From contig CM075995.1 in NCBI GenBank assembly GCA_038087875.1, positions 9,798,001 to 9,862,000 of the forward strand: a stretch of DNA of 64,000 nucleotides, read 5' to 3'. The translations under genes and the position numbers were made by a program. Shown piece by piece: positions 6,277 to 48,337 of this stretch (position 1 is the stretch's first letter; each line of letters opens with the position of its first letter). The notes beneath the pieces are model-generated. The model did no database searches and was not told the origin of the DNA. It saw only the letters and a program-made list of their open reading frames with translations. The stretch comes from Malacoraja senta (lineage: Eukaryota).

Positions 6277-7572
6277 CTGGTCAGGAAAAAGGCAACTCCA
6301 TTACGGGCGGTTTGGGTGGCAAACTGGATGACATTGGATGAGACCCTGTCACACTGGAGAGATGTTTGGAGGCGTGTGATTAGTGGTACATCAGTGCTCG
6401 GCCCACTGCTGCTTGGCATCTCTGGGAATGATTTGGAGGAGAATGGTCAATAGGTTTGTGGGTGGACAATGATGAAGGTTGTCTCAGGTTACAAGATCTT
6501 GGTCACTTGGCAAGTGGGCCAAAGAATGGCAGATGGAGTTTAACTGGGGCAGTGCCAGGTGTGTATTTTGGGAAGTTAAAGCAAGGCAGGATGTAGAGTA
6601 ACTATCTGTATAGAGGGGAGAGTTACAGACCAGAGTCCTCAGGGTATAGGTACACAGATGCCCATGGGCAGCTCCACAGGTGAAGGTGGTGTTTTGGCAC
6701 GCTTGCCTTCACCATTGGTGCATTATATGTTATTGTGGACATTGGTGGGATTGCAGCAGGAAGTCGTGTGCAGTGGTGAATGCCCAGCTGTGAGACCAGG
6801 TAGAGGGACCACAGGAGCTGGCAGCTTAAGTTTCCCAGTGATCACAGGTCATGCTGTGGGAATGGGAAGATGAGGTGGCCGCAGGAGACCATGCAGCAGG
6901 CGGGTGAGAGAGCAAGCGCGCGCATGGGGCGCAGCCTGCAGCAGCTGCATGTTTGGAGTGGCGGCGGTGGGGTTGGCGGAGGCGGCCGCAGGAGGTTTGC
7001 GGTGTTGGCGATAGTGTTGGCAGGAGGTTTACGGTGGGGGTGGGCGGTGGTGTTGGTGAAGATGGCCGCGGGCGGCCCTACAGCAGGCGGGCGGGCGGGT
7101 GGATGGAGCGCAGCCTGCGGCAGATGCACAGAGCAGCGGTGGAAGGAACCAATAGCATGGTGCTGGGCCAGGCCCACCTCTACTTCACCAGGAACTATGT
7201 GATTACGCTGGAGAGGGTGCAGGCATCCCATGCTCTGAAAGCACTCTGCTCGGCATGGACAGCTGCATCGTCTGCTCTGTGGCTCGGAGCGGTAACACAG
7301 TGCACGGCATCTGACGGTATTGCCGTAAATCCTGGCCACCAGCCCAGTCACACCCACTGCACGCCACTAACTATTCCACAAGATACACCAACAGAAAGCT
7401 GCAGCCAAAAACATTGCCACAGGCTCCTACACAACCCAGCCTGGGCATGCAAAAGGGGTGGGGAAGGAGGGGGACAGGTGGGGAGAGAGAGAGAGAGAGA
7501 GAGAGAAGTAGGAGCTGGAGAGAGAAAATGACAGCGTTGGGACAGTGAGGGAAAGGAACAGACAACAGATCG

Positions 7573-8226
7573 GAGAGGCGGGGGGGAGAGTGGCGGGGGG
7601 GAGAGGCGGGGGGAGAGAGGCGGGGGGGGAGAGTGGCGGGGGGGAGAGTGGCGGGGGGAGAGAGGCGGGGGGAGAGAGGCGGGGGGGGAGAGAGGCGGGG
7701 GGGGAGAGAGGCGGGGGGGGAGAGAGGCGGAGGGGGAGAGAGGCGGAGGGGGAGAGAGGCGGGGGGGGGAGAGAGGCGGGGGGGGGAGAGAGGCGGGGGG
7801 GGAGAGAGGCGGGGGGGGGAGAGAGGCGGCGGGGAGAGAGGCGGCGGGGAGAGAGGCGGCGGGGAGAGAGGCGGGGGGGAGAGAGGCGGGGGGAGAGAGG
7901 CGGGGGGGAGAGAGGCGGGGGGGAGAGAGGCGGGGGGGAGAGAGGCGGGGGGGAGAGAGGCGGGGGGAGAGAGGCGGGGGGGAGAGATGTGGGGGGGAGA
8001 GAGGCGGGGGGGGAGAGAGGCGGGGGGGGGAGAGGCGGGGGGGGAGAGAGGCGGGGGGGGAGAGAGGCGGGGGGGGAGAGAGGCGGGGGGGGAGAGGCGG
8101 GGGGGGAGAGAGGCAGGGGGGGGGGGAGAGGCAGGGGGGGGGAGAGAGGCGGGGGGGGAGAGAGGCGGGGGGGGAGAGAGGCGGGGGGGGGAGAGAGGCG
8201 GGGGGGAGAGAGGCGGGGGGAGAGAG
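7573..8226. repeat. G-rich minisatellite (GAGAGGCGGGGGGG)n
   Basis: Direct inspection; many G-runs (G-quadruplex-prone on the + strand). Confidence 0.95.
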
Positions 8227-8293
8227 GCTGGTTATTTGAGAGGTAGAGGGAGGGAGAGGCTGGTTGGGGCGGTGCTGCGGGGATCTTGCTTAC

Positions 8294-8463
8294 AGCTCGG
8301 TGAGCATGAGAGTGGAGTGCAGGGAGTACACGGGTCCAGTCATCGCACAGTTGGACACGTCCTCACACATCATCACCACCCGGTCCTCAGAGTGGGACTG
8401 GGATGCGGAGGAGCTGCTGTGGCGTTGCTGCCTCTTCTTCCTCCTCTTCATGGAGTTGAGCAT
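8294..8463 (-). CDS. PLEC: Candidate alternative internal first exon of plectin (splices to exon 7)
   Basis: ATG 8463 (AGCATGC, A at -3); 56 codons + 2 nt MLNSMKRRKKRQQRHSSSSASQSHSEDRVVMMCEDVSNCAMTGPVYSLHSTLMLTE(L); donor CT|GTAAGC in phase 2, matching exon 7; unique sequence; in-frame TGA upstream at 8505-8503. Confidence 0.6.
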
Positions 8464-8908
8464 GCTGCCGGTATTCGCCACACACTCCGTGTCAGTGCCG
8501 TCTCACCCCAGCAGTGCCGGCAGGGTGGGGCGGGGAGCGAGCAAAGACCTGCTGCCTACAGGGAGCAGACGGCTCATACCTGCCACTCCCCATGAAGGTA
8601 GCCAGCTGTCCAAGCTGCTGCCAGGAACACTCCCCACTCACACACAGCAGCAGCAGCCAGGCACACGTCCCAACACGGATCACATCTACTGCTCAAACAT
8701 ACACCAGCACTCATGGGGAGAGAGCAACTCCCTACTTACCGGGGAGAGAGGGGGGGAGGGGGAAGGGGGGGAGGGGGAAGGGGGAGAGGGGGAGGGAGGG
8801 AGAGGGGGGGAAGGGGAAGGGGGAGGGAGAGTGGAGTGTGTGTGTGTAGATATGTGCGGGTGAGTGAGTGTGAGCCGGCCTGCCCTGCTGGTGCTGCTTG
8901 GCCTGTAC

Positions 8909-9107: not shown

Positions 9108-10075
9108 GCCCAGCACCGACATACCCCAGCCCCGACATACCCCAGCACCACCCCGACATACCCCAGCACCACCCGACATACCCCAGCACCACCCCGACAT
9201 ACCCCAGCACCGCCCCGACATACCCCAGCACCGACATACCCCAGCCCCGACATACCCCAGCCCCGACATACCCCAGCACCACCCCGACATACCCCAGCCC
9301 CGACATACCCCAGCACCACCCCGACATACCCCAGCACCACCCCGACATACCCCAGCCCCGACATACCCCAGCACCACCCCGACATACCCCAGCACCACCC
9401 CGACATACCCCAGCACCACCCCGACATACCCCAGCCCCGACATACCCCAGCCCCGACATACCCCAGCACCACCCCGACATACCCCAGCACCACCCCGACA
9501 TACCCCAGCACCACCCGACATACCCCAGCACCACCCCGACATACCCCAGCCCCGACATACCCCAGCCCCGACATACCCCAGCCCCGACATACCCCAGCCC
9601 CGACATACCCCAGCACCACCCCGACATACCCCAGCCCCGACATACCCCAGCCCCGACATACCCCAGCCCCGACATACCCCAGCCCCGACATACCCCAGCC
9701 CCACCCCGACATACCCCAGCACCACCCCGACATACCCCAGCACCACCCCGACATACCCCAGCCCCGACATACCCCAGCCCCGACATACCCCAGCCCCGAC
9801 ATACCCCAGCCCCGACATACCCCAGCCCCGACATACCCCAGCCCCGACATACCCCAGCCCCGACATACCCCAGCCCCGACATACCCCAGCCCCGACATAC
9901 CCCAGCCCCGACATATACCCCTGCCATGATATATACCCCAGCCCCGACATATACCCCTGCCATGATATATACCCCAGCCCCACCCCGACATACCCCAGCC
10001 CCGACATACCCCAGCCCCGACATATACCCCTGCCATGATATATACCCCAGCACCACACCGGTATATTCCCCAGCA
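9108..10075. repeat. Minisatellite of mixed 16/21-bp units CCCCGACATACCCCAG(CACCA)
   Basis: Direct inspection; starts about 30 nt upstream of the exon 6 acceptor. Confidence 0.97.
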
Positions 10076-10139
10076 CCGAGATACCCCCTACAACCCTATA
10101 CCACAACGTCAGTACTCAGTACCGCACCTTCCACCACCC

Positions 10140-10964: not shown

Positions 10965-11164
10965 NNNNNNNNNNNNNNNNNNNNNNNNNNNNNNNNNNNN
11001 NNNNNNNNNNNNNNNNNNNNNNNNNNNNNNNNNNNNNNNNNNNNNNNNNNNNNNNNNNNNNNNNNNNNNNNNNNNNNNNNNNNNNNNNNNNNNNNNNNNN
11101 NNNNNNNNNNNNNNNNNNNNNNNNNNNNNNNNNNNNNNNNNNNNNNNNNNNNNNNNNNNNNNNN
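10965..11164. other. Assembly gap (200 N)
   Basis: Run of exactly 200 N; the round number suggests a placeholder of unknown true size. Confidence 0.99.
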
Positions 11165-14398: not shown

Positions 14399-14499
14399 CT
14401 GCAACACAAAAGATCAATGACATTCAGCTGGGGCAGGAGACACGGGGGGGGGGGGGGGGGGAAGCACCCGAGGCGAGACATGACTAGACCACAGGGAAC

Positions 14500-17220: not shown

Positions 17221-17308
17221 CTTTCCGTGCCTCAGTGGACTTCAACTTGTCCTGGTACAACCTGTCGTCGGAGGTCAGGCGACCCCGGGGGGACTGTGCT
17301 GTAAACAT
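17221..17308 (-). CDS. PLEC: Plectin alternative first exon 1a-like
   Basis: MFTAQSPRGRLTSDDRLYQDKLKSTEARK + G|GTATTT, phase 1 (88 nt); resembles mammalian 1a ..RKRTSSEDNLYLAVLRASEGKK (from memory); closest coding first exon to exon 2. Confidence 0.8.
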
Positions 17309-29864: not shown

Positions 29865-29949
29865 CCAGACAACACATCTGCGTCAGTAGGTAATGGTTAA
29901 CCTCTCGTTCCCGGGTGTAACTACACCAGACACCCTGCTCGCTCCACAT
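29865..29949 (-). CDS. PLEC: Plectin alternative first exon 1g-like
   Basis: Hand translation (too short for the ORF track) MWSEQGVWCSYTREREVNHYLLTQMCCL + G|GTGCGT, phase 1 (85 nt); C-terminal HYLLTQMCCL resembles mammalian 1g GYLYQQLCCV (from memory); lies between 1b and 1a. Confidence 0.78.
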
Positions 29950-33600: not shown

Positions 33601-34468
33601 CATTGTAATTGTAGCCAATTTGCACTGACTGACCATGACTGAGAAACAGCTGTTTCTCCAACACATCAGCCCCTCTGTCTGTGATCCAGGCAAGGAAGCA
33701 AACACTGAGCTGTCACCACTCAGCACCATCTCTGTACCGCACAGTCCAAAGCTGCACGCACACAGGCCCTTTGCCCATCCAGCCTGTGCTGGCTCTTTTG
33801 GTTCACTCCCCTGCCCTGACCCTTGTCCCAGAATGTACCCCTGGTGTCCCTCACTGGTAAACTCATTTTGCTGTTACATCGACCTGCCACATAAATCCTC
33901 CTCACCCTAATTTATCCACCGACTCTCCAATCCCTACCAGCTCCTCGCATTCACTGTCAAAACCACTCCAATTCTCCACACCTCTCAACCTTAGTCCAAA
34001 GAGCAGCCCAACTTCTCAGTCATCGAGCCCAACACCCAGAAACACAATGGAAAACGACCTCTAAACAAGGTCTCTATACAATAATGTCACCACAGTGTGC
34101 ATGCCCCTTTTAAGGAGGTCCCCACAGTCTCCATAGCTTTCTTAAAGTGCCATGACTATATTAAGCAGGTCTCCACGACGTGCATAGTCCTTTTAAACAG
34201 GTCTCTGTGCAATAGCAGCTTCAAGCAGTCCCTAAAGCGTGCATAGCCCTTTTAAGCAAGTCTCATCGTGTGCACAGCCGCTTTAAGCAGGTCCCCACAG
34301 GCAGTCGGGCTTGTCATTACAGCAAGTTGCCATGGAGCTAAAAGTACACAGCCGCCATTTTCTCAGTTAAATGCCGACTGGTTAAATCAGCTGGAGTCCC
34401 GTTGCCTGTCGAGTGGGTCCCACAGCTGGCGAGGCGGAACCTCGGTGTCCGCCCACCCCGCGCCTTAC

Positions 34469-34577
34469 CTGATCTCTGCCTCTTCCTCTTCCTCCAGTGC
34501 CAGACCACCAGCAAGGTGACAAGATGCCCCAACACCACCAGCGAGGGCAGCAGCCGGTCGGGGGAGCCTTGAGGCAT
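34469..34577 (-). CDS. PLEC: Plectin alternative first exon 1b-like (mitochondrial signal-anchor type)
   Basis: MPQGSPDRLLPSLVVLGHLVTLLVVWHWRKRKRQRS + G|GTAAGG, phase 1 (109 nt); close match to mammalian 1b MEPSGSLFPSLVVVGHVVTLAAVWHWRR; sits in a CpG-rich island (about 34360-34920). Confidence 0.93.
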
Positions 34578-47868: not shown

Positions 47869-48337
47869 CTGCTGAGGATGTCCCGATCAACACCAGCCCC
47901 ACCTCGGGCCCCTTCTTGTCTCTCAGCTCCTCGATCTTGCGATACTCCTGCCTCCCCCGCTCAGCGTCGGTGGAGGGTCCTGGTGGCCGAGGAGAGGGGC
48001 GGGGGACGGGGGCCCGGAGGGTGGGGCGGTGCCGGGCCTGTCGCTGCAGGGTGGCGGGTACGATGTCGGGGGGCAGGTGCAGGTACTGGCGAAGGAAGCC
48101 CACACCCTGGTCCATCAGGTACCAGTAGTGGTGTCTCCACACGAAGCTCTCCCGCACCATCCCCCGAGACTTCAGTGAGCCCAGGGCCCGGATCACCTGC
48201 AGGTTGGACAGGGCCCTCAGCTCAGGGTGCCGGGACTGGGGGCACCGGCTCTCCTGGGCCACCACCACCCCATCTCGGAACAGCAGCTCGTACAATGCCC
48301 GCAGCTGGGGCAGGGGCAGCAGCATGCCTGCCACCAT
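47869..48337 (-). CDS. PLEC: Plectin alternative first exon 1 (S10/plectin domain), 469 nt coding
   Basis: MVAGMLLPLPQLRALYELLFRDGVVVA..NLQVIRALGSLKSRGMVRESFVWRHHYWYL..LRQYLHLPPDIVPATLQR; strong Kozak GCCTCACCATGG; donor GCA G|GTTAGC in phase 1. Confidence 0.95.

Follow-up and report, generated by a model that had tools for sequence, protein, structure and literature searches.

Does the plectin gene possess a coding first exon within intron 6, i.e. one from which a plectin would start inside its own actin-binding domain? The question is raised by 64,000 nucleotides of the genome of Malacoraja senta (assembly GCA_038087875.1, contig CM075995.1, positions 9,798,001 to 9,862,000 of the forward strand), hereafter the window, in which a sequence-only reading had picked out a short open frame that begins with an ATG and ends at a splice donor. 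In the account given in PMC3695321, plectin has nine coding first exons (1-1g and 1k) and three non-coding ones (1h-1j), all of them spliced to exon 2, and exons 7-32 are described in passages of PMC8464768 and PMC11774597 as common to all plectin isoforms. The analysis reported here leads to the view that the stretch in intron 6 is very probably a used coding exon of plectin. The whole explanation is also probable: the stretch would be a coding sequence conserved among jawed vertebrates, likely a first exon joined to exon 7, that supplies the protein with a positioning peptide of its own.

The minus strand of the window carries the 5' part of a plectin gene, whose assignment as the PLEC orthologue comes from an S10-type exon 1, CH exons, a plakin domain, a single rod exon and a large C-terminal repeat exon (Table 1). 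The rod exon sits downstream of the window and has as its top matches the plectins of Carcharodon (76%) and Callorhinchus (73%), as against 64-69% for the plectins of other vertebrates. Besides the S10-type exon, tblastn finds three more plectin first exons in the window, two of which resemble exons 1a and 1b. The third resembles N-termini of the type "...LCC(V/A)" seen in plectin models of frog, marsupial, turtle, bird and sturgeon. In several lizard and turtle plectin models the N-terminus is a long hydrophobic segment of transmembrane-like character, much like that of the membrane-anchored BPAG1a2. Plectin exons 3-5, encoding most of CH1, were not found anywhere within the window and probably fall in its assembly gap; because they are missing, exon numbers are assigned by homology. 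The donor of exon 6 itself, GTACAG, is non-consensus.

Long simple tandem repeats at 9110-10100 and 7570-8260 flank exon 6 and the candidate exon; on the coding strand they are G-rich upstream of exon 6 and C/T-rich downstream of the candidate donor. The C-terminal repeat exon (contig ~9.718-9.748 Mb, minus strand) is very long: an open frame of 4603 codons gives way to frames of 391 and 343 codons that lie in other phases, a layout that suggests repeat expansion together with frameshifts, and these frameshifts may be assembly errors.

Table 1. Features of the plectin locus, in positions of the window
Feature	Position	Strand	Basis or remark
S10-type plectin exon 1	48014-48337	minus	tblastn
First exon resembling 1b	34455-34577	minus	tblastn
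Another coding first exon	29866-29949	minus	matches Callorhinchus plectin X2 N-terminus
First exon resembling 1a	17222-17308	minus	tblastn
Plectin exon 2	near 14400	minus	tblastn
Assembly gap, 200 N	10965-11164		sequence
Plectin exon 6, first part of CH2	9075-8909	minus	sequence, Pfam (CH positions 2-44); 167 nt, phase-2 end
Possible small leader intron (putative)	8556..8739	minus	donor CCG/GTAAGT, acceptor AG 8557-8556
In-frame TGA upstream of the ATG	8503..8505	minus	sequence
Coding part of candidate alternative 5' exon	8294..8463	minus	sequence and homologous N-termini; ATG, 56 codons + 2 nt, phase-2 donor
Basic cluster, residues 6-11	8431..8448	minus	homologues
Core, residues 26-36, with Cys33	8356..8388	minus	alignment
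Tail, residues 46-56, reaching the donor	8294..8328	minus	homologues
Splice donor GTAAGC	8288..8293	minus	sequence
Plectin exon 7, the acceptor exon	5169-5054	minus	sequence, Pfam (CH positions 46-86); preceded by pyrimidine-rich AG

The anatomy of the candidate exon, which lies in an island that is single-copy in the genome, is borne out by the sequence as it had been described: an ATG (8463-8461, minus strand) with A at -3, 56 codons, and a CT/GTAAGC donor (8294/8293) in the phase that fits exon 7. This phase is that of the end of exon 6, so that the candidate runs into exon 7 in frame and meets no stop; unspliced reading past the donor gives Leu and then a stop. The in-frame stop expected about 40 nt ahead of the ATG is a TGA that measures 39 nt upstream, and the only AG that preserves the frame free of stops, said to lack a pyrimidine tract, is the CAG at 8465, with 7 pyrimidines in 18 positions. 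A control drawn from the same strand shows what such features are worth by themselves. Among 230 GT(A/G)AG donors on the minus strand of the window, six close a phase-2 frame that starts with an ATG and runs for 50 codons or more, and anatomy alone is therefore only suggestive.

The evidence that carries the assignment comes from other vertebrates. In total 327 plectin records were gathered by means of the rod exon and cluster look-ups, i.e. without use of the candidate peptide, and among the matches listed eight of them, representing six species, have a homologous peptide at the start and exon 7 after it. They comprise Callorhinchus milii XP_042202753.1 (X4) and a fragment of it, Acipenser ruthenus XP_058866016.1 (X6), Hyperolius riggenbachi XP_068094253.1 (X12), Alligator mississippiensis KYO24633.1 and, from teleosts, one record of Coilia grayii and two of Labeo rohita. 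All are automatic predicted gene models. In the four models from Callorhinchus (X4), Acipenser (X6), Hyperolius (X12) and Alligator the peptide joins exon 7 at the same residue as the window predicts, with a junction E(I/L/V)-P in chimaera, sturgeon, frog and alligator that is the residue specified by the window donor. These four predicted models represent the orthologous isoform.

A profile made from five joined records, with the window peptide left out, recovers the candidate open frame at E 4.9e-12 among 1916 six-frame ORFs of the window, the runner-up standing at 0.37. In a profile run over 588 kb of the host genome (the window and other loci) the candidate alone is found, the next match having E 0.067. 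A seven-sequence profile run against 1.84 billion representatives gives 51 matches at E of at most 0.001, of which 49 fit the core pattern described below, another carries the core with one residue fewer, and the last is a chance match of low complexity. Three of the 51 run on into plectin exon 7, Scleropages and Tachysurus among them, and an unjoined match is from the frog Ascaphus (names were sought for 10 of the 51 and obtained for these three species). The joined gene models thus span eight named species in total, and every one of the 11 joined records continues as plectin. The peptide stands at the N-terminus in ten of these; in the remaining one it is placed between exon 6 and exon 7, and in three (both Labeo records and Scleropages) the peptide ends anomalously ahead of exon 7. 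The peptide is short and isoform-specific and starts at its own ATG, as seen in both the sequence and the gene models.

Single-sequence searches gave less, a motif of this length being beyond the sensitivity of such queries: the window peptide used directly as a protein query found no homologue among 30 candidates of 99-2000 aa, and of 17 candidates obtained with the Coilia N-terminus the one match was the query itself. A search of the host genome for a paralogue of the peptide returned the self match and two at E 6.65. Pfam holds no family for the peptide, an Atlas search gave no usable match, and PDB matches start at about the exon 7 part.

With these results the earlier proposal that plectin intron 6 holds a coding first exon spliced to exon 7 gains strong support from homologous joined gene models and from an independent profile, and its conservation extends beyond the host to another chondrichthyan, the chimaera, and further to ray-finned fish, frog and alligator, a range wider than had been proposed. 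The basic N-terminus that had been singled out is itself conserved, with at least five K/R in the ten residues upstream of the core in 45 of 49 homologues, but a better-conserved core and a tail motif had been overlooked.

The core has the pattern (E/D)DRV(V/I)MxC(E/D)(D/E)(I/V). A shorter statement of it is DRVVMxCED, and in the full pattern a P follows. V29 and C33 are invariant in 41 of 41 aligned sequences, the Cys being partly built in by the profile search; it is also present in 8 of 8 records found independently of the peptide. The tail, YS(L/V/I)xSxLxLxE, persists well in chimaera, sturgeon and tetrapod-type sequences and in some from teleosts but is eroded in many others, and the linker that separates it from the core ranges in length from ~10 residues in the window up to over 60 in teleosts. 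A Met is present 26-38 residues ahead of the Cys in 53 of 54 sequences, which suits a start codon, although gene callers favour Met starts. Fifteen homologous ORFs (nine of the 51 matches plus six cluster mates, chosen by eye) end right after the tail, as the window read-through does, and these protein ends suggest that the donor is conserved in them too.

AlphaFold, given the peptide with 41 sequences, returns pLDDT 63, pTM 0.18 and no secondary structure, a result that fits a disordered segment with short motifs; the joined chimaera fragment (pLDDT 42, pTM 0.23) is uninformative. Core and tail presumably resemble immunoglobulin B and E strands. A pairing of the two as a beta-hairpin was considered and finds no support in the AlphaFold models.

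The distribution of the peptide among plectins is patchy. Among the matches listed, a partial sample, the other 319 of the 327 plectin records lack it and have no N-terminus similar to it. It is absent from the complete clusters of lungfish (13 of 13 records) and coelacanth (5 of 5), and from 31 of 31 marsupial and platypus records, in a mammalian sample confined to non-placentals. Absence from most records probably means that the isoform is minor, restricted, or lost in places.

The start of the transcript is where the first alternative arises. Upstream of the candidate there is no TATA box or CpG island (CpG observed/expected 0.24-0.40), and the stretch from exon 6 to the start codon contains five ATGs. 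The coding exon might instead be the second in its transcript, a non-coding leader exon ending at 8740 being spliced to 8556 to yield the same protein. The donor at 8740/8739 is consensus, the acceptor has 12 pyrimidines in 18 positions, and the splice would delete all five upstream ATGs, leaving 0 in a 261-nt leader. However, leader splice sites of this kind occur by chance, these are known from window sequence alone, and the intron would alter the 5' architecture rather than the product; an arrangement of this sort is possible but doubtful.

A second alternative concerns the age of the exon. The sequence-only reading had pointed to similar N-termini in predicted DST and MACF1 isoforms and proposed an ancestral spectraplakin exon, i.e. 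one that predates plectin and is common to all three genes. Internal starts inside the actin-binding domain are indeed described for BPAG1a3/n3, MACF1a3 and MACF1c in parts of PMC3352950 and PMC8012552, and 48 of the 51 profile matches are unjoined to any downstream exon and hence lack gene context. Yet all 11 joined records are plectin, and the a3 isoforms as described keep the whole of CH2 and would therefore join one exon earlier, which together make a shared ancestral exon rather improbable. Neither DST nor MACF1 was located in this assembly by queries with exon 2, exon 6, exon 7, a CH2-plakin fragment, PF17902 and PF02187, which returned plectin and spectrin-, nesprin-, dystrophin/utrophin-, desmoplakin- and GAS2-like loci (labels read from translations); incomplete assembly or the limits of the search are more likely causes than loss of the genes.

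Two further alternatives would make the stretch an internal exon. As an in-frame cassette between exons 6 and 7 it would add 57 residues within CH2 and leave the rest of plectin complete; the CAG at 8465 yields a 171-nt stop-free inclusion, and the one gene model with exon 6, peptide and exon 7 in order shows such an arrangement. The weakness of that acceptor, the ten joined records of 11 that begin with the peptide, and the Met conserved in nearly all sequences, which fits a start codon, render a cassette quite improbable, and the earlier preference for a first exon is sustained. Inclusion from the acceptors at 8556-8549 would make it a poison cassette, leading to an early stop and mRNA decay and so tuning the level of plectin. 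With any of the three better acceptors a stop follows exon 6 at codon 71-77, and the donor of exon 6 departs from consensus, but conservation of protein motifs from chimaera to alligator with linkers of variable length would be unexpected for a decay exon, and the idea has very little to recommend it. A chance intronic ORF or gene-prediction artefact, for which the comparable anatomy at 6 of 230 donors might be invoked, deserves almost no credence, as conservation (independent profile E 4.9e-12, same position and junction in four vertebrate classes) effectively refutes chance.

For a first exon joined to exon 7 the consequences for the protein can be predicted. On the Pfam CH profile the join falls at position 46 of 109, in agreement with the proposal that the isoform would lack CH1 and about half of CH2, the loss in the latter being the first 45 profile positions. 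The predicted isoform keeps the plakin domain, the rod and the C-terminal intermediate-filament-binding repeats. CH1 carries most of the actin binding and CH2-only spectraplakins bind actin weakly, as PMC3352950 has it in the portion concerned; the relevant part of PMC4452579 has integrin beta4 contacting plectin at CH1 and, as a second site, at the plakin domain. With CH1 lost, the main F-actin contact and the primary integrin beta4 contact are thus predicted to be lost.

In the proposed mechanism an internal promoter in intron 6 would drive the transcript, and the stretch, as alternative first coding exon, would be spliced to exon 7 in Malacoraja senta. The resulting plectin, predicted to lack actin binding, would be positioned by its own N-terminal peptide. 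That the peptide sets the location of the protein in the cell is argued by analogy: the peptides of first exons already characterized in plectin serve to target the protein, according to a passage of PMC8468861. The peptide is likely disordered, and its hydrophobic Cys core and tail may be short docking motifs for a specific partner, with the basic cluster helping; it would then tie intermediate filaments to a site left unserved by the isoforms that bind actin.

For this last step protein docking, suggested by conservation of the motifs, has about an even chance of being right. A lipid or electrostatic membrane anchor using the basic residues and the Cys is possible, with a good deal less weight; neither the window peptide nor the joined models have a Gly at position 2, i.e. 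no myristoylation motif was found in them. Docking is favoured over a lipid anchor because the ten-residue core is conserved residue by residue, seemingly beyond what a lipid anchor needs. A role in the nucleus, through importin or SUMO, is unlikely. SUMO-interacting motifs have a hydrophobic V/I-V/I-x-V/I/L core followed by acidic residues, a pattern that fits 41 of 55 cores but not that of the window, with Met at the fourth place, and that leaves the Cys unexplained. A slightly smaller share of probability falls to some other function.

A coding start exon in plectin intron 6 was not described in the literature searched, a scope outside which subscription papers and supplements fall, and automatic gene models already contain the isoform, which the literature apparently does not describe. 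The accepted picture of plectin centres on first exons spliced to exon 2, which direct a protein with complete actin binding to different sites, and a start in intron 6 would be a different design, in which binding of actin and integrin beta4 is predicted to be swapped for a well-conserved motif. Put most broadly, and tentatively, with confidence a little short of even, there may be an ancient plectin transcription unit of jawed vertebrates that starts inside the actin-binding domain and in which a Cys-centred docking motif, taking the place of actin and integrin binding, gives intermediate filaments a new anchor; the plectin literature, centred on mammals, would have missed it because these have lost the exon or still hide it in their intron 6, and it may exist in DST or MACF1 as well. 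Knock-outs or morpholinos directed at exons 1-6 in zebrafish or Xenopus would spare such an isoform, and its retention in placental mammals, if so, would bear on the reading of intronic PLEC variants. Interest is limited by the fact that the isoform already exists in gene models and that forms deficient in actin binding are already familiar from plectin and its paralogues.

Among known systems the nearest are the other plectin isoforms. Plectins 1-1g and 1k, as presented in the parts of PMC3695321 and PMC8468861 that deal with them, resemble the candidate in that an alternative first exon gives each isoform a short N-terminal peptide of its own, but these exons join exon 2 and the whole actin-binding domain is kept, whereas the candidate lies downstream of exon 6 and its homologues join exon 7. 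Plectins 1h, 1i and 1j likewise lack most of the actin-binding domain; in the description of PMC3695321 their first exons are non-coding and join exon 2, translation starts from exon 6, and no unique peptide is added. The candidate, by contrast, is a coding exon in intron 6; it would skip exon 6, splice to exon 7 and bring a conserved peptide with it. In the paralogues, internal starts remove part or all of the actin-binding domain in BPAG1a3/b3/n3, MACF1a3, MACF1c and BPAG1e, as the candidate would in plectin, going by the sections concerned of PMC3352950, PMC8012552, PMC4914211 and PMC4452579; MACF1c lacks the entire domain as characterized in PMC3352950, PMC8012552 and PMC4914211. BPAG1a3 and MACF1a3 are described there with an intact CH2, whereas the candidate cuts inside CH2, and BPAG1a3 gains a targeting N-terminus by myristoylation, for which the candidate has no Gly2 site. 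By analogy, the candidate isoform would work like the internal-start isoforms of DST and MACF1.
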